Shown here one piece after another: positions 8,629 through 15,499 of a stretch of DNA of 64,000 bases; positions within the stretch are counted from its first letter, which is position 1; the number at the start of each line of letters is the position of its first letter. The DNA comes from Minisyncoccota bacterium. Lineage in GTDB: Bacteria; Patescibacteriota; Minisyncoccia; Phycocordibacterales; DSPV01. The translations under genes and the position numbers were made by a program. Below the pieces are notes generated by a model. The model was given only the letters and a program-made list of their open reading frames with translations. It did no database searches and was not told where the DNA came from. The stretch is taken from NCBI GenBank assembly GCA_041662545.1, contig JBAZSH010000001.1, positions 46,813 to 110,812 of the forward strand, read 5' to 3'.

Positions 8629-8976
8629 ATGAAAATATTGAAAAATGTTTTTTTGTTGGTGGTTGTTGTCGGGTTGTCTTATTTATTATCTTATCCCATT
8701 GGTTCTCTATATGGCAGTTTATTTACAGGAACAGGATCTTTTGTAGATATGACTAGTCTTTTGGGTATTCCTCTAGCTTACATCTTTCTTTTGACTTCAG
8801 TTTTCACCGTTTGGGGTGGTACGAAAAAATATTGGTGGATCGGTATTGGTTTAATTCCAGTGGCAATCGTTGAACTTTATCTTGACCCAAATCGTATTTA
8901 TTTTCCAATTCTTCTCGGCTTCCTCGGCTGGCTTGTTGGTTTTGGGATTCGGAAACTTTTCGTTGGGAAAAAATAA
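8629..8976 (+). CDS. Small integral membrane protein (about 4 TM), hypothetical
   Basis: 115 aa, hydrophobic throughout. It starts 2 nt after the stop of the upstream gene. Its 3' end (8893-8976) is duplicated at 15279-15365. Confidence 0.5.
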   Translation: MKILKNVFLLVVVVGLSYLLSYPIGSLYGSLFTGTGSFVDMTSLLGIPLAYIFLLTSVFTVWGGTKKYWWIGIGLIPVAIVELYLDPNRIYFPILLGFLGWLVGFGIRKLFVGKK

Positions 8977-8989
8977 TTAATATAAAACT

Positions 8990-9359: not shown

Positions 9360-9710
9360 ATGAATATAAAAATGAAAAATATAATATCTATTACTGAAGC
9401 CAGAAGCAACATTTTTGACATTGCCAAAAAAATCCAGAGGCAAGGCAACCATTACATTTTTACCGAGAACGGCAAGCCAAAAATCGCCGTAATGTCCGCC
9501 GATGAATACGAAAATCTTATGGAAGATTTGTTTTTAGCATCTGACCCTAAATTCGCCGCCGAAATAAAAAAGTCAGAAGAAGAATTTGCCCGAGGAGAGT
9601 ATTCTACTTGGGAGGAAGTAAAGGCAAATTTAGACCAGAGAAGAAATTTTGTTGTTGCCGATAAGTCCAAAAAAGGTTATTCCGCAAAGAAGAATAAAAA
9701 AAACAAATAA
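9360..9710 (+). CDS. Type II antitoxin, Phd/YefM family
   Basis: The N-terminus ISITEARSNIFDIAKK...IAVMSADEYENLME matches the Phd/YefM fold. A K-rich C-terminal tail is present. The stop lies 1 nt before the toxin start. Confidence 0.7.
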   Translation: MNIKMKNIISITEARSNIFDIAKKIQRQGNHYIFTENGKPKIAVMSADEYENLMEDLFLASDPKFAAEIKKSEEEFARGEYSTWEEVKANLDQRRNFVVADKSKKGYSAKKNKKNK

Positions 9711-9711
9711 T

Positions 9712-9978
9712 ATGTCCCAAAGATATTTTATTTTTTTGCGGAGAAGCGCGGAAAAAATTTTGTATAAAATGCCGAGTCAAATTAGCCAAAGAATTGAAAA
9801 AGTTATTGACGAGCTGGAGACAAATCCTTATCTTGGTTCAAAAATGCACGGGGAATTGTCGCATTTAAGAAAAATTAGAGTTTCAGATTACAGAATAATT
9901 TACCAAATTTTTGAATCAAAGATAGTTATTGAAATTCTAGAAATCCAAAGTCGTGGCAATGTGTTATATGATAGGTAG
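9712..9978 (+). CDS. Type II toxin, RelE/ParE family
   Basis: 88 aa from the ATG at 9712 (MSQRYFIF...). The C-terminal block RIIYQIF...IVIEILEIQSRGNV is typical of RelE/ParE toxins. It lies immediately downstream of the Phd/YefM gene. Confidence 0.7.
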   Translation: MSQRYFIFLRRSAEKILYKMPSQISQRIEKVIDELETNPYLGSKMHGELSHLRKIRVSDYRIIYQIFESKIVIEILEIQSRGNVLYDR

Positions 9979-10245
9979 AAAATAAAATGTCAAAAGAAAT
10001 GGAAAAATAATTTATTAAAATATGCCTATATTAAATTGGATTGCAAAAGAAAAAATTGAAAATCATGTAAGGATGTGCCTTTTCGGTTGCTTAAAAAAAA
10101 TAAAAAGTTGTCGCTTGGAGAAAAAAGCGAAAATCCCGCTTTTGGCGGGACCGCGTGATTAGTAGGATTTCTCCTACATCAAAAGTATAGCATGGCAATC
10201 AGTTATTAAGCAATATTTGTGGATAAGTGAAAAAGTGAGAAAACG

Positions 10246-10286
10246 AAGGCCTCGCCTTTGTTGCAAAGGCGAGGCCTTTATTTCTC
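10246..10286 (+). terminator. Intrinsic terminator-like hairpin (14-bp perfect stem AAGGCCTCGCCTTT/AAAGGCGAGGCCTT, 5-nt loop, followed by TATTTCTC)
   Basis: Perfect inverted repeat read directly from the sequence, with a T-rich 3' flank. It lies in a 370-nt noncoding stretch between relE and the defence operon. Confidence 0.5.
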
Positions 10287-10350
10287 TGGTTTTTTCTCAA
10301 AAAAGTGGTAATGTTTAAACATCCCCCAGTGTGTTTGGGGGAATAAAAAT

Positions 10351-11277
10351 ATGGCGATTTTTAAGATAAAAAATAATAAGTTAGAAAAGTTTAAAGAAAG
10401 AGAAGCTTTTTTGGAAAAAGATATCCAAAAGCTTACTGAATTAAACTTGAGTGAGATTTTCAAGTTGGAGTATATGTCTTCGCAATTTTCTCTAAAAAAT
10501 TTGAGAATTGATACTTTGTGTTTTGACCCTGAAAATAAAGCCTTTGTTATTATTGAATACAAAAAAGATAGAAGTTTCAGTGTCATCGATCAAGGCTTTG
10601 CGTACCTATCTTTACTGTTAAACAATAAGGCGGATTTTTTGGTTGAGTATAACGAAAAAAATAAATCAAAAACATTGTCGCGCGAAAGTGTAAATTGGTC
10701 TCAGTCCAAGGTAATTTTTATTTCTCCATTTTTTTCATCTCACCAGAAAGAGGCCATCAATTTCAAAAATCTACCAATTGAATTATGGGAGATAAAATAT
10801 TATGGTAGTGATTTAGTTGAATATAAGAATATTGAACCGCTAGAATCATCAGAAAAAATAGAAACCCTTACTGGTAGCAAGTTTATTAAAGAGGTGATAA
10901 AAGAGGTAAAAAATTATGATTTAGAACATCATCTCAAAAAAGGATCTGACAAAACAAGGAAATTATTCTTTGTGTTAAAAGAAAAAATTCTTGAGTTAGG
11001 AGAAATCAACGAAAAATATTTACAATTTTATGTGGGCTATAAAATGGGCGACAGCTACATTAGTTTTTGTCAGATACATTTTTATAAAGAAAAATTGGAG
11101 ATATCAATTCTTATACCGGATAAAAAATTATCTGATTCTAAAAAGTGGGCTCGAAAAGTACCCAAATCTTATGGCTGGGCGAAAAATAGCAAATTTTTTA
11201 ATATCAAAACTGAAAAGGATATTTCGTACACAATGAATTTGATAGAGCAGTCTTACGAGTTTAATAAAAGTAGATAA
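10351..11277 (+). CDS. PD-(D/E)xK nuclease-fold protein (NucS/DUF91-like N-terminal region), hypothetical
   Basis: 308 aa. The block CFDPENKAFVIIEYKKD fits a D...ExK restriction-endonuclease-like catalytic motif. It is the first gene of a tight co-directional operon. Confidence 0.45.
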   Translation: MAIFKIKNNKLEKFKEREAFLEKDIQKLTELNLSEIFKLEYMSSQFSLKNLRIDTLCFDPENKAFVIIEYKKDRSFSVIDQGFAYLSLLLNNKADFLVEYNEKNKSKTLSRESVNWSQSKVIFISPFFSSHQKEAINFKNLPIELWEIKYYGSDLVEYKNIEPLESSEKIETLTGSKFIKEVIKEVKNYDLEHHLKKGSDKTRKLFFVLKEKILELGEINEKYLQFYVGYKMGDSYISFCQIHFYKEKLEISILIPDKKLSDSKKWARKVPKSYGWAKNSKFFNIKTEKDISYTMNLIEQSYEFNKSR

Positions 11278-11280
11278 TTT

Positions 11281-12498
11281 ATGGTAAGAGAAGCATCAAT
11301 CAAAAATCTTACAAATGCGAAACGGGCAAAGAATGATGAGTTTTATACTCAGTACATCGATATTCAAAAAGAAATTGAAAAGTATTTAGATTACAACCCT
11401 AATACATTTCGAGCCAAAATAGTGTACTGCAACTGCGATGACCCGTTTGAGAGCAATTTCTTTCGTTATTTTGTGCTAAATTTCAACAACCTTGGATTGA
11501 AGCAGCTAATCACAACGAGCTACAAACCATCGCCTGTCGCCAACACGCAACTGGGATTATTTGGTGATGACAAAACACTTGTAAAAGCAAAAGGTCGGCC
11601 GAAGGTAACGGCGAACAAGTTCATTATCAACGAGGTGCACGACATAGATGGCGATGGCGAGTTTAACTTGAAGGATGTTGCAAAACAGTTAAAGATAAAT
11701 AAACACAACGAGTGGATGCCACTAAGTGGTGATGGTGATTTCCGTAGCGATGAGTGCGTCGAACTACTCAAGCGGTCTGACATCGTAATAACCAATCCTC
11801 CGTTTAGTTTGTTTCGCGAATATGTTAAACAACTTTTTGATTACAAAAAAAGGTTTCTGATAATCGGCAATATGAATGCGATTACCTATAAAGAAGTATT
11901 CCCTTTAATTAAGGATAATAAAATATGGCTTGGGGCTGGTAAAAATGACGGACGAAATGTATGGTTTCAAATTCCTGATCATTATGAAAAATTTCATAAG
12001 GAGGAAAATGGTAAGAAATATGCTTTTGTCGCAGGAACAATTTGGTTTACGAACCTTGACCATGGGCGCCGTCATCAACCGTTGCCGTTGATGACCACGA
12101 CAGAGGTAATTAAATTTGGTGCAAAAAAGTCATTCGAAAAGTACGATAACTACAACGCAATAGAGGTTCCACTGGTTAAATACATCCCAAATGATTACGA
12201 TGGCGTGATGGGTGTACCAATTAGTTTTCTTAGCAAATATAACCCCGATCAGTTTGAGATCTTAGGAGCTACTCAAAGAGGTTGCCATGATGAGGTTCCC
12301 GACACAAAAAAGTATGATGATTACTGGGAAGTAAGACAGAATGGTGAAAAAACAGGATCGTCTGGTGGAAAAACAAATGAAAATGCCAATTTGGTTGAGA
12401 ATGACGGGAAAAAGAATTACTTTATAAATAATGAAAGCCGAATAATTCAATCTGCTTACCAAAGAATTTTTATAAGACACAAGAAAGCTAAAAAATAA
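11281..12498 (+). CDS. DNA N6-adenine methyltransferase, EcoRI-methylase-like family (NPPF motif)
   Basis: 405 aa. N-terminal NDEFYTQY...VYCNCDDPFESNFF and catalytic IVITNPPFSLF (motif IV, (D/N)PP(F/Y)) are typical of gamma-class adenine methyltransferases of the M.EcoRI family. Confidence 0.7.
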   Translation: MVREASIKNLTNAKRAKNDEFYTQYIDIQKEIEKYLDYNPNTFRAKIVYCNCDDPFESNFFRYFVLNFNNLGLKQLITTSYKPSPVANTQLGLFGDDKTLVKAKGRPKVTANKFIINEVHDIDGDGEFNLKDVAKQLKINKHNEWMPLSGDGDFRSDECVELLKRSDIVITNPPFSLFREYVKQLFDYKKRFLIIGNMNAITYKEVFPLIKDNKIWLGAGKNDGRNVWFQIPDHYEKFHKEENGKKYAFVAGTIWFTNLDHGRRHQPLPLMTTTEVIKFGAKKSFEKYDNYNAIEVPLVKYIPNDYDGVMGVPISFLSKYNPDQFEILGATQRGCHDEVPDTKKYDDYWEVRQNGEKTGSSGGKTNENANLVENDGKKNYFINNESRIIQSAYQRIFIRHKKAKK

Positions 12499-12501
12499 AT
12501 T

Positions 12502-13242
12502 ATGGCTAAAGTTATAAAATTATTTGATCCAATTTATATGAAGGCGTTAAAACTTGCTTCAGAAATTCATTCTAAATCAAGAGAACAAATTGATGTAACA
12601 AAAAAGGATAAAAAATTAGTAATTTATTATTTGCAAGGAGGTTGTATCACGCATGCATACTTAGCAATTAATCATTGGTTGTCGGGCGATCTTGGTGCCC
12701 CTTTTATCCACAAGAGGATAATACAAGAAATGGGAAATGTGGCACTCTTTATTTCTGTATTACCGGAAGAACACAGGTATATAAAATCTTTTTTTGAAAA
12801 AAGTATAATAAGTTTTCCAAATATTTTTTCGACAAAATGGGAAAAAGAAAAAAAGGTAATTTTGAATAAAATGGAATGGGATGATCAAACTTTAAAAAAA
12901 TGGCAGGACAATGCGAAGTTATTAAATGATGGTTTTTCGAATGCAATGCATGCGCAAATTGAGACAGCCGGTTGGAACTCAGATAAATATACGGGGGAAT
13001 ATGATTATCGTCTTCAATGGAATGAATTTCAAGGAGGATTTATAAGGAATTTTGATTTTGGGCATTATATTATAATTCCTACTATTAAACCTTTACTCAT
13101 AAATAAAGAAGTGCTTTTAATAGAAAAAGAAGATTTGGATAAGATAAATCAAATTTTGGAAGTAGTTTTTAATACCGGATTAGATATATTTAATAATTTA
13201 CGAGACAGTGTTTTAAGTAAACAACAGGTAAACACTGGCTAA
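12502..13242 (+). CDS. Hypothetical protein (candidate restriction/effector partner of the MTase)
   Basis: 246-aa ORF starting 3 nt after the MTase stop. No recognizable motifs; placement is the only functional clue. Confidence 0.3.
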   Translation: MAKVIKLFDPIYMKALKLASEIHSKSREQIDVTKKDKKLVIYYLQGGCITHAYLAINHWLSGDLGAPFIHKRIIQEMGNVALFISVLPEEHRYIKSFFEKSIISFPNIFSTKWEKEKKVILNKMEWDDQTLKKWQDNAKLLNDGFSNAMHAQIETAGWNSDKYTGEYDYRLQWNEFQGGFIRNFDFGHYIIIPTIKPLLINKEVLLIEKEDLDKINQILEVVFNTGLDIFNNLRDSVLSKQQVNTG

Positions 13243-13259
13243 TATAAACAATAAATAAT

Positions 13260-14102
13260 ATGAAAAACAACACTTCGCTTGCCATTTTTGAAACTCACAA
13301 AATTCGCCGGTATTTTGACGAGAAAACAGAAACTTGGTTTTTTTCGGTTATTGATATTGTGGCGGCTTTGACGGAACAGAATGATTTTCAAGTGGCTAGA
13401 TCGTATTGGAAAAAGCTTGCACAAAGACTCAGGGATGAAGAAAGTCAAGTGGTGACAAAATGTCACCGGTTGAAAATGATGGCTCAAGACGGCAAGATGC
13501 GAGAAACCGATGCCGCCGATGTGGAAATTATTTTGCGCCTGATTCAATCAGTGCCAAGCAAAAAAGCCGAACCTATCAAATTGTGGCTGGCGAAAGTCGG
13601 TTATGAACGAATGCAGGAAATGAGCGACCCGGAAATAGCGCTGAATCGTTCTCGCGCATATTGGCAAAAACAAGGAAGAAGCGAGAAATGGATCCAGCAA
13701 CGGATGATGGGGCAAGAGACTAGAAATAAACTCACTGACTATTGGGCGGAAAGCGGTGTAAAAAAAGGCGAAGAATTTGCCATTCTTACAAATATAATTC
13801 ACCAAGAATGGAGCGACTTGTCGGTAAAGGCGCACAAAAATCTTAAGGGACTGAAAACGCAAAATCTTCGTGATCATATGAGCGAAGAAGAATTGATTTT
13901 CACCGCGCTGGCGGAGCTTTCTACCAGAAGAATTGCTGAAACTGACAAAACACAAGGTTTGGAAGATAATAAAATTCCTGCGATTAAGGGCGGTCGGATT
14001 GCCAAGGGCGCAAGAAAGGCGCTTGAAGAAAAAACAGGGAGGTCGGTTATAACTGGGAATAATTATTTGCCAAATAAACAACTGATTAAAAAATTAAAAT
14101 AA
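13260..14102 (+). CDS. Bro-N domain / DNA-damage-inducible protein D (DinD)-like protein
   Basis: N-terminal [24 protein letters not shown] matches the Bro-N pattern. The C-terminal part ([20 protein letters not shown]...[25 protein letters not shown]...[13 protein letters not shown]) resembles E. coli DinD. Confidence 0.6.
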
Positions 14103-14103
14103 T

Positions 14104-15273
14104 ATGAAAACAATTTTAAAAACCAATATCACTGTCAAAGATATTTGCGAAGGATTCATCTATAACGAACTGGAAGGCAGGGGTTTGCTTGGCTTGTCTG
14201 GCAAACTCACCATTCAGCCGGAATATCAGCGAAATTATATTTATGCATCCGATGGCGGTAAGCGAGAAATGGCCGTCATTGAGTCAGTTCTTAAAGAATA
14301 TCCAATAGGGTTGATTTATTTCAATAAAGTTTCTAATGATAAATTTGAAGTATTGGACGGTCAACAGCGCATCACAAGTCTTGGACGATTTATCACCGAC
14401 AAATTTGCCATCAAAGATGAAAATGGGATGCCGCAGATTTTTGGTAATATGGCGAGGGATAAGCAAAAAAAGATTTTGGAAACGAAATTACTGATTTACG
14501 AATGCGAAGGTACTGAAAGTCAGATAAAAGAGTGGTTCAAGACTGTAAATATTGCCGGTGTTCCGCTCAACAATCAGGAATTACTCAACGCAGTATATTC
14601 TGGCCCATTTGTAACTAAGGCTAAAGAGGAATTCAGTAATAGTCAAAACGCTAATATTCAAAAATGGAGTGCGTATGTTTCTGGTAGTGCCAACAGGCAG
14701 GAATTTTTGGAATGTGCTTTTGATTGGGTAAGCAAGGGAAGCATTGGCGACTACATGAGCAAGCATCGCAAAGACAAAAACATTGATGAGCTAAAAAAAT
14801 ATTTCAATACTGTCATCGATTGGGTATCTAGCATATTTACTGATGTAGAAAGCGAAATGCGCGGGCTTAAATGGGGGCTACTTTACGAGGAATATCACAA
14901 AAAGGCATATAGCCCAGCGAAAGTAGCGACCGAGGTGCGCAAGCTCTACGGAGATCCATACATCAAAAACCGCAAAGGCATTTTTGAGTATATTCTCGGT
15001 GGTTCCAGTGATACAAAATTGCTTGAAGTTCGGGTTTTTGATGAAGCGACTAAAAGATCTACTTACGAATCACAGACCGCTAAAGCAAAGAAAAAAGAAG
15101 AATCAAATTGTTCTCTCTGCGCTGTCGGACATGATGCGAACAAGGGTAAAATTTGGAGTTTTGCTGAAATGGAAGCAGACCATGTATCAGCGTGGAGCAA
15201 GGGTGGCGCTACTTCGGCAAAAAATTGCCAGATGCTCTGCAAAACTCATAATCGAGCAAAAGGAAATCAGTAA
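14104..15273 (+). CDS. DUF262 (ParB-like DGQQR NTPase/nuclease domain) fused to C-terminal HNH endonuclease; type IV-restriction-like
   Basis: 389 aa with the DGQQRITSL motif of DUF262/ParB-like proteins. The C-terminal CSLC...[12 protein letters not shown]...[10 protein letters not shown] is a canonical HNH motif. The gene starts 1 nt after the dinD-like stop. Confidence 0.7.
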
Positions 15274-15278
15274 AGAAC

Positions 15279-15365
15279 CGCATTTATTTTCCAATCCTTC
15301 TCGGCCTCCTCGGCTGGCTTATTGGTTTCGGTATCCAAAAACTTCTCGCGCGAAAATATCAATAA
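15279..15365 (+). repeat. Orphan duplicate of the 3' end of the 8629-8976 gene (direct repeat, right island boundary)
   Basis: About 80% nt identity to 8893-8976 with the reading frame preserved (IYFPILLGLLGWLIGFGIQKLLARKYQ* versus IYFPILLGFLGWLVGFGIRKLFVGKK*). It has no upstream ORF body. Confidence 0.7.
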
Positions 15366-15499
15366 AAAGGAGCGGCGACAGATTTATTCCATTCACCAAA
15401 GATGAAAGTGGAGTTCTGTCGCCGAAGGTAACTAGTTGAGATTACCCTCGTCTCATTATATCATGATATAATTGAAATTCAGTAAACTTTAGATTTTTT

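Follow-up and report, generated by a model that had tools for sequence, protein, structure and literature searches.

The question raised by this locus is whether five tightly packed genes encode one composite immune machine, or a familiar kind of defence system with further genes lodged in and around it. The genes occupy positions 10351-15273 of the window, by which we mean the whole 64,000-nucleotide (nt) stretch of contig JBAZSH010000001.1 of a Minisyncoccota bacterium. As an earlier note on this DNA had stated from the listing of open reading frames (ORFs), the five are co-directional and separated by intergenic gaps of 3, 3, 17 and 1 nt. Here, p1 to p5 denote the five ORFs in order, M and R denote homologues of p2 and p5, respectively, and L-numbers denote related loci. 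With p2 and p5 as the core of a restriction-modification (R-M) system, the five genes are as follows (sizes in amino acids, aa).

10351-11277, + strand: p1, 308 aa, PDC-S18 candidate, PD-(D/E)xK-like with DUF5655; in front of the R-M pair

11281-12498, + strand: p2, 405 aa, EcoRI-family N6-adenine DNA methyltransferase; M half of the R-M core

12502-13242, + strand: p3, 246 aa, all-alpha protein of a rare R-M-linked family; first cargo in the M-R slot

13260-14102, + strand: p4, 280 aa, probable Bro-N domain protein, PDC-S13 candidate; second cargo in the M-R slot

14104-15273, + strand: p5, 389 aa, DUF262 (ParB-like, with DGQQR) plus zinc-finger HNH; R half of the core

Judging from sequence comparison, the cluster is very probably a two-gene type II R-M cassette with three independently acquired accessory genes, the whole lying in an island of ~6.3 kilobases (kb) at the 3' end of a membrane-protein gene. 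It is read here as an R-M cassette of an ordinary, horizontally mobile kind that carries embedded accessory genes, and not as a novel immune machine of five parts. The comparison that carries this answer took one genome per species and found a p5 relative in at least 577 genomes, of which the best 80 (78-89% identity) are the loci analysed. M and R are the unit, and p1, p3 and p4 lie outside it, because a p2 homologue accompanies p5 in 72 of the 80 loci while the other three families rarely or never do (p1 in none, p3 in one, p4 in four). The earlier note had proposed one novel composite five-gene defence system with an architecture not described before; this particular combination of genes is new, but it is not conserved, and none of ~110 related loci has all five genes.

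Both halves of the core are readily recognized, and the motifs that the earlier note had named in them (DEFYTQY and NPPF in p2, DGQQR and HNH in p5), as well as VIIEYKKD in p1, were all found. The p2 product matches the Pfam model EcoRI_methylase (PF13651) over its full length (1.1e-123, model positions 1-345 of 345) and the PADLOC model MTase_II (PDLC03297) with 5e-105, and its catalytic NPPF corresponds to residues 172-175. For p5, the expected combination of a DUF262 domain and a canonical HNH domain is likewise present, with Pfam matches to GmrSD_N (DUF262; 1.7e-20) and HNH (PF01844; 1.5e-06), the DGQQR motif at residues 85-89 and an intact HNH finger pattern (CxxC...DH...N...H). In PADLOC, p5 matches the model REase_II (PDLC03418) from end to end (2.3e-85, model positions 3-371 of 372), and the GmrSD-like models HEC-05, HEC-06 and Orf5 only within its first 60-100 residues (roughly residues 30-100; 1e-05 to 1e-06). 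Sequence and profile searches of the PDB with p1, p2, p4 and p5 gave no match, and no named, characterised REBASE enzyme of the DUF262-HNH type was identified.

The pairing of M with R is conserved over a wide range of hosts and of sequence divergence. The best 80 p5 relatives come from Patescibacteria, Actinomycetota, Proteobacteria, Omnitrophota, Nitrospirota, Chloroflexota, Bacteroidota, Elusimicrobiota and others, several of them on contigs of 50 kb to 1.5 megabases. In the 72 loci mentioned above, the p2 homologue lies upstream of R on the same strand, and five of the other eight loci are cut by a contig end. In 49 of the 72, M is within 150 nt of R, with no cargo. Each of the 13 viral contigs with DNA upstream of R also has M there on the same strand, even at 37-39% R identity, and RefSeq plasmids of the cultured bacteria Enterococcus, Pediococcus and Pseudarthrobacter carry an "adenine-specific methyltransferase EcoRI family protein" beside a "DUF262 domain-containing protein". 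The partner methylases of the best 80 loci come in forms with a long and with a short C-terminus.

We read p5 as the R of a type II pair because, even at 37% identity, its relatives nearly always follow directly on an EcoRI-family methyltransferase gene, an arrangement that marks a cognate type II R-M pair and not a stand-alone type IV enzyme. Going by family membership and by the conserved pairing, p2 would mark the host copies of a target sequence by adenine methylation, and p5 would cut DNA without this mark through the active site of its HNH domain. By analogy with other DUF262 proteins, the ParB-like domain with DGQQR in p5 probably serves to bind DNA or nucleotides.

Between M and R lies a slot that is often filled. 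In 23 of the 72 loci, 0.6-3.6 kb of other genes lie between the two, and the window is one such filled slot. The cargo is co-directional with M and R, and in the 23 occupied loci it falls into 19 unrelated clusters. RhuM/PDC-S05 occurs in ten loci, MUG113/PDC-S57 in three, SoFic in two, and PD-Lambda-5 A together with a Dam-like methylase in two; further cargo includes PIN_8, DUF2130 and AntA proteins, several unknowns, and one protein with a sub-threshold HEPN_AbiU2 match. In L041 (1633-4414), a complete second R-M pair, consisting of a C5 cytosine methylase and a GHKL-ATPase type II restriction enzyme, is nested in the slot.

The junction itself is well defined. In empty loci, the methylase has the C-terminus R(I/V)(F/L)IKHKKK*, and a single base separates its TAA from the start of R (AAGAAAAAATAA-T-ATGAAAAC; AAGAAAAAATAA-T-ATG). 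In occupied loci, the first cargo gene begins at the ATG position that R uses in the empty ones. An exact direct repeat of the junction AAGAAAAAATAATATGAAAA, 12-24 nt long and in register, surrounds the cargo in 11 of the 23 occupied loci (L023, L033, L043, L045, L047, L052, L058, L069, L070, L081 and L087; exact repeats of 12 nt or more were counted), and none of the random windows of the same loci matched this pattern. In L087, R's first codons recur behind M. Among the occupied loci, several cargo proteins finish in the same Lys-rich tail as the methylase. It looks as if cargo is gained or swapped in the form of cassettes through short-homology recombination at the junction. Cargo that inserts exactly at the M-stop/R-start junction would inherit the stop-to-start spacing found there. 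The tight gaps of 3, 17 and 1 nt, which the earlier note had taken as a sign of translational coupling, are for this reason better regarded as a property of the slot than as evidence of one machine.

Two related loci show departures from the usual arrangement. In L095, which has the order M-p3-RhuM-R, R is split at 9838-11007 into ORFs of 139 and 230 aa; this is likely a frameshift, with R decaying while M and the cargo stay. In L053, a RhuM-R pair sits within a menaquinone-biosynthesis operon (UbiD, radical SAM, MqnA-like and UbiE genes).

Of the three accessory proteins, p4 matches the PADLOC model PDC-S13 (PDLC04920; 6.6e-117, model positions 1-275 of 286) and is also a member of phrog_15286; the PDC-S13 family is very large, since all 8000 scored candidates fell at E-values of 1e-05 or lower (at least 8000 members). 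The description of p4 as Bro-N/DinD-like is probably right in its first part: p4 itself scores 25.4 bits against Bro-N (PF02498), just under the gathering threshold of 25.6, and most of its homologues of 78-94% identity carry a precomputed PF02498 match. The DinD likeness is a loose one, with 16.6 bits (E-value 0.0037) against NCBIfam PRK11525 over the C-terminal 95 residues only and a cut-off of 242 bits. In the AlphaFold2 model of p4 (mean predicted local distance difference test score, pLDDT, 58.9), the N-terminal domain (residues 10-110) is moderately confident and the C-terminal half is below 50. A Foldseek search of the PDB with this model returned nothing at an E-value of 0.001 or lower, and a weak match to DdrC was disregarded.

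The order M-p4-R recurs in L023, L045 and L112, the last a Phocaeicola plasmid with M at 43% and R at 59% identity; in L055 and L075, p4 homologues lie near R. The family is also found in other settings. On the Arcobacter cloacae plasmid pACLO (L110:5992-6888), a PDC-S13 homologue with 47% identity to p4 is placed between cas4 and cas1b in a type I-B CRISPR-Cas operon, and in Haliscomenobacter a p4 homologue follows a DUF4942 gene.

The first gene, p1, lies outside the slot, in front of M. It matches the PADLOC model PDC-S18 (PDLC04945; 5.6e-95, model positions 1-301 of 302), a family of more than 6000 clusters, and its C-terminus matches Pfam DUF5655 (3e-06). The residues D54, E69 and K71, which form a D...E-x-K pattern, are invariant in 30 homologues of 47-85% identity, and this supports a PD-(D/E)xK-like core in the N-terminal part. 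The nuclease motif that the earlier note had pointed out is accordingly supported by conservation; as to the fold itself, there is a match to HSDR_N_2 at 18.9 bits, below the cut-off of 25, and no PDB profile match. Two p1 homologues also match YhcG_C (PF06250). Outside the p5 loci, p1 homologues were seen after HsdMSR, before a type IIG-like enzyme and near a type ISP/MmeI-like enzyme, in one genome each.

The third accessory protein, p3, is a special case because it belongs to an uncatalogued family. It has no match in Pfam, PADLOC, NCBIfam or PHROGs, in agreement with its earlier description as unannotated. The family is small: a search of 5.8 billion proteins gave 33 clusters, and an exhaustive HMMER pass through 1.84 billion representatives gave 54 (at 50% identity). 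Its members are all single-domain proteins of ~205-260 aa. Of 41 distant members, seven reach Pfam DUF5677 (PF18928), with a best E-value of 1e-09; p3 and its closer relatives do not. The residues H23, G46, E76, H150 and Y169 are invariant in the family down to 17% identity. The AlphaFold2 model of p3 is a helical bundle (pLDDT 79.6) with no informative PDB match, and in p3 no ABC ATPase, no HEPN anticodon-nuclease domain or Rx4-6H motif, and no toxin or nuclease fold was recognised. An assignment of p3 to the HEPN proteins is speculative: the family has a conserved S-x3-H-P-T, but neither the Rx4-6H motif nor a HEPN fold match. The idea that p3 is a phage anti-restriction gene was dropped, as a search of 2.9 million viral contigs gave no relative. 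Finally, a 285-aa neighbour of p3 in L004 was considered as a relative of p4 and shows no similarity to it.

In all 14 informative contexts, p3 lies within or next to an R-M operon of type I, II or III. In type II loci, the order is M-p3-R, M-p3-RhuM-R or M-R-p3, with EcoRI-family methylases and a DUF262-HNH R of 38-82% identity to p5; the single case among the best 80 p5 loci has p3 downstream of R. Five type III loci have the order Mod-p3-Res, with p3 overlapping mod by 8 nt, and in two type I loci p3 lies between hsdM and hsdS. Whatever the R-M type, p3 is nearly always directly behind the methylase gene and ahead of the remaining R-M genes. A distant relative (37%) in L107 (896-2473, - strand) adjoins a large serine recombinase; serine recombinases have been reported as markers of defence loci (PMC12632615).

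Each of p1, p3 and p4 thus recurs with other, unrelated defence systems. From this comparative context, we propose that the three would act as separate second-line or back-up defence modules that use the R-M operon for expression and co-transfer; each is probably a back-up module of its own and a co-expressed passenger.

Several observations weigh against this picture of a cognate type II pair with independent cargo. Three loci (L019:3891-7170, L053:3405-5623 and L075:37-5379) have an intact close R (81-85% identity) with no EcoRI-family or other DNA methylase within ~6 kb, the distance that was examined, and an R without a nearby methylase is unusual for an orthodox type II nuclease. Across the best 80 loci (L011-L090), identity is 78-89% for R and 42-76% for M; the methylase may have been exchanged among lineages, or M and R may be evolving at very different rates. 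The DUF262 domain is best known from modification-dependent enzymes. Palindrome avoidance, in host DNA and in the M and R genes, yielded no specific target signal. The window's own cargo has no clear junction repeat, the longest shared stretch being 8 nt. Identity to p3 tracks the type of R-M system: it is about 82-91% in most type II loci (L006 has 63%), 69-80% for type III and 48-56% for type I. This hints that p3 is functionally tied to the R-M system that hosts it and is not fully independent. Finally, a distant DUF5677 gene studied in Enterococcus with six phages is not among the genes reported as protective (PMC12632615).

As for the target sequence, palindrome counts did not point to any one site. 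In 23 of 62 p5 loci, the 4-mer palindrome avoided most strongly is ACGT, but the trend in control loci is similar, and avoidance within the M and R genes extends non-specifically to many palindromes. Neither GAATTC nor AATT is avoided in host DNA.

A first alternative is that the accessory genes have no defence role at all: they could be regulators of R expression, as analogues of the C proteins that delay R after transfer, or selfish hitch-hikers kept in place by the risk of post-segregational killing. We consider this unlikely, although there is something in its favour. The nearly constant place of p3 between the methylase and the remaining R-M genes would suit a regulator, the Bro-N, AntA and RhuM-type N-terminal domains are DNA-binding and antirepressor-like, p3 shows no recognisable toxin or nuclease fold, and the Enterococcus result for the distant DUF5677 gene would fit as well. 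However, much of the slot's cargo is experimentally supported or toxin-like defence (SoFic, PD-Lambda-5, PIN and the weak HEPN-like match), and the nuclease motif of p1 is invariant. The invariant polar residues of p3 (H23, E76, H150 and Y169, across 17-91% identity) look enzymatic, which is not what would be expected of a helix-turn-helix regulator, and the 49 cargo-free loci of the 72 do without any such gene.

There is room for a closer tie between p3 and its hosts, because p3 keeps its place behind the adenine methylases of three R-M types and co-varies with the type. On this evidence, p3 might represent a new class of R-M-dependent accessory protein, a guardian or modulator that would sense a feature common to the three types and trigger a second response, which we regard as distinctly unlikely. 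The feature that it would read could be methyltransferase activity, the supply of S-adenosylmethionine, or attack by an anti-restriction protein.

Another possibility concerns the core rather than the cargo. If p5 were a type IV-like, modification-dependent or otherwise non-orthodox nuclease, as the earlier note had suggested, p2 would not be its protector, and would instead be an orphan or phase-marking methylase or a source of the signal. An N-terminal DUF262 with DGQQR is a hallmark of GmrSD, BrxU and SspE, and the weak PADLOC matches of p5 to HEC-05 and HEC-06, the three close R homologues that lack a nearby EcoRI-family methylase, and the much higher conservation of R than of M all agree with this. 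Against it, M-R order and adjacency are kept from 89% to 37% R identity. The full-length REase_II match exceeds the partial GmrSD-like ones by far; p5 has a canonical zinc-finger HNH (PF01844) instead of DUF1524; and at 389 aa it is without the long linker of GmrSD-type enzymes. Beside an active methylase, a nuclease of this kind would also be self-destructive unless the specificities of the two differed. Taken together, this makes the type IV-like option highly improbable, and p2 and p5 continue to be read here as M and R of one type II system.

There remains the single machine of five parts, for which the best argument is the layout of the operon. One transcript for the five genes is plausible, as the earlier note had supposed, because a strong hairpin precedes p1 and no terminator-like site of comparable strength was found inside the cluster (10351-15273).

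10245-10279, bidirectional: terminator-like hairpin of 16 base pairs, nine of them G-C, followed by a T-run; 70 nt upstream of p1

An integrated system, in which p2 would define self, p5 would sense modification and p1, p3 and p4 would be obligatory sensors, regulators or effectors, might draw on this single hairpin in front of tightly spaced, co-directional genes and on the recurrence of the sub-arrangements M-p3-R and M-p4-R, but is extremely improbable given that no related locus has all five genes, that p1 is missing from 80 of 80 p5 loci and p3 present in one (behind R), that M and R are adjacent and cargo-free in most loci, that the slot takes 19 unrelated cargo clusters, that the accessory genes also occur with type I or III R-M, type IIG and CRISPR systems, and that insertion at the M-stop/R-start junction explains the tight spacing.

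The cassette can be compared with several known systems. With type II R-M systems that have an EcoRI-family methyltransferase, it shares separate, co-oriented M and R genes with M first, an abutting stop and start, and an N6-adenine enzyme with NPPF. It differs in that p5 is a DUF262-HNH protein and not an EcoRI-like PD-(D/E)xK enzyme, and in that genes are inserted between M and R in a third of the loci, the window included. With the DUF262-DUF1524 enzymes GmrSD, BrxU and SspE, p5 shares an N-terminal DUF262 with DGQQR and a C-terminal nuclease of the His-Me-finger type. However, p5 has 389 aa as compared with ~550-700, its nuclease is a PF01844 HNH with CxxC, and it has no DUF1524 match and no long helical linker; moreover, those enzymes are stand-alone, whereas a methylase lies directly upstream of the p5 relatives in ~90% of the loci.

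For the accessory genes, the closest precedents are studies of embedding. RhuM, Fic/Doc and HEPN genes within R-M operons were described in 2013 and proposed to be a second line once restriction is defeated (Anantharaman et al., PMC3710099). Payne et al. (bioRxiv 10.1101/2024.01.29.577857) used guilt by embedding in a survey whose host systems were Hma, BREX, DISARM and type I R-M; the PDC families are predictions, defined by being nested in BREX, DISARM or type I R-M systems, and seven other systems were validated in that work, PDC-S13 and PDC-S18 not being among them. The present locus follows the same logic, with unrelated genes nested in a defence operon of several genes. Both p4 (PDC-S13) and p1 (PDC-S18) are of that set, and the cargo of sister loci includes PDC-S05, PDC-S57, SoFic and PD-Lambda-5. 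Here, the host is instead a two-gene type II pair with a defined junction and flanking repeats, and p3 is absent from PADLOC. In the literature main texts and supplements examined, PDC-S13 and PDC-S18 are not mentioned by name.

PrrC in the EcoprrI type Ic locus resembles p3 in being an accessory gene between R-M subunit genes, as p3 is between hsdM and hsdS in type I loci, but p3 is without an ABC ATPase or recognisable HEPN Rx4-6H motif and has no informative fold match. The R-M systems that host p3 are of three types with different mechanisms, which makes it less likely that p3 acts, in the manner of PrrC, as a physical latch on a single enzyme. The Pfam DUF5677 proteins are similar to the p3 family in size, in having a single domain and in being helical; p3 itself, however, is unmatched by the model.

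The core is thus already modelled in PADLOC, p1 and p4 are already catalogued as candidates, and embedding as such has been known since 2013 and was surveyed in 2024. What is new is a two-gene type II cassette with a defined and often used insertion junction. New as well, from the family searches, is p3 as an uncatalogued family found so far within R-M loci (14 of 14 informative contexts). The phenomenon of embedded defence genes therefore also covers a type II cassette of just two genes, which carries cargo in about a third of its copies, and the M-R cassette is a convenient natural "gene trap" for new accessory genes. A tight operon of defence-looking genes in a genome of the candidate phyla radiation (CPR) should not be taken as a new system. 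If p3, PDC-S13 or PDC-S18 do add protection or sense anti-restriction, the locus, at less than 5 kb, would be directly testable in E. coli.

The five genes lie in a low-G+C (guanine plus cytosine) island with repeat boundaries, which the earlier note had also recognized. Its edges are the two copies of a 91-nt direct repeat, which are 79% identical, and it includes a toxin-antitoxin pair that the hairpin at 10245-10279 sets apart from the five-gene unit.

8890-8980, + strand: left repeat copy, 3' end of the membrane-protein gene at 8629-8976; left edge of the ~6.3-kb island

9360-9710, + strand: Phd/YefM-type antitoxin gene (Pfam PhdYeFM_antitox, 4.9e-12), inside the island

9712-9978, + strand: ParE-type toxin gene (Pfam ParE_toxin, 1.4e-11), inside the island

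15276-15366, + strand: right repeat copy, the original 3' end of the membrane-protein gene, now displaced; right island edge

The right repeat copy begins two bases after the p5 stop codon. Since this repeat is a duplicate of the membrane-protein gene's 3' end, the island arrived with a gene end of its own and displaced the original one. The G+C content is 0.31-0.39 inside the island and ~0.44 outside, and no integrase and no tRNA gene is present. For the ParE gene, the mechanical ORF start is the TTG at 9649; the likelier start is the ATG at 9712, right behind the antitoxin stop, where the junction reads AATAATATG (9693-9714). A protein identical to p3 is recorded under "Candidatus Paceibacterota bacterium", which agrees with the CPR origin that had been read from the sequence.

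A minor observation concerns the palindromes of the window as a whole. ACGT is nearly missing from positions 1-64000, with six sites observed (3935, 16188, 28689, 29723, 42502 and 57689) where a Markov model predicts 76; the island has none. TCGA, CATG, TGCA and GTAC occur at 0.33-0.43 of expectation, and their density is about twice as high inside the island as outside. This distribution suggests that the host lineage may have been exposed for long to several 4-base-cutter R-M systems, with the island as a newer arrival.

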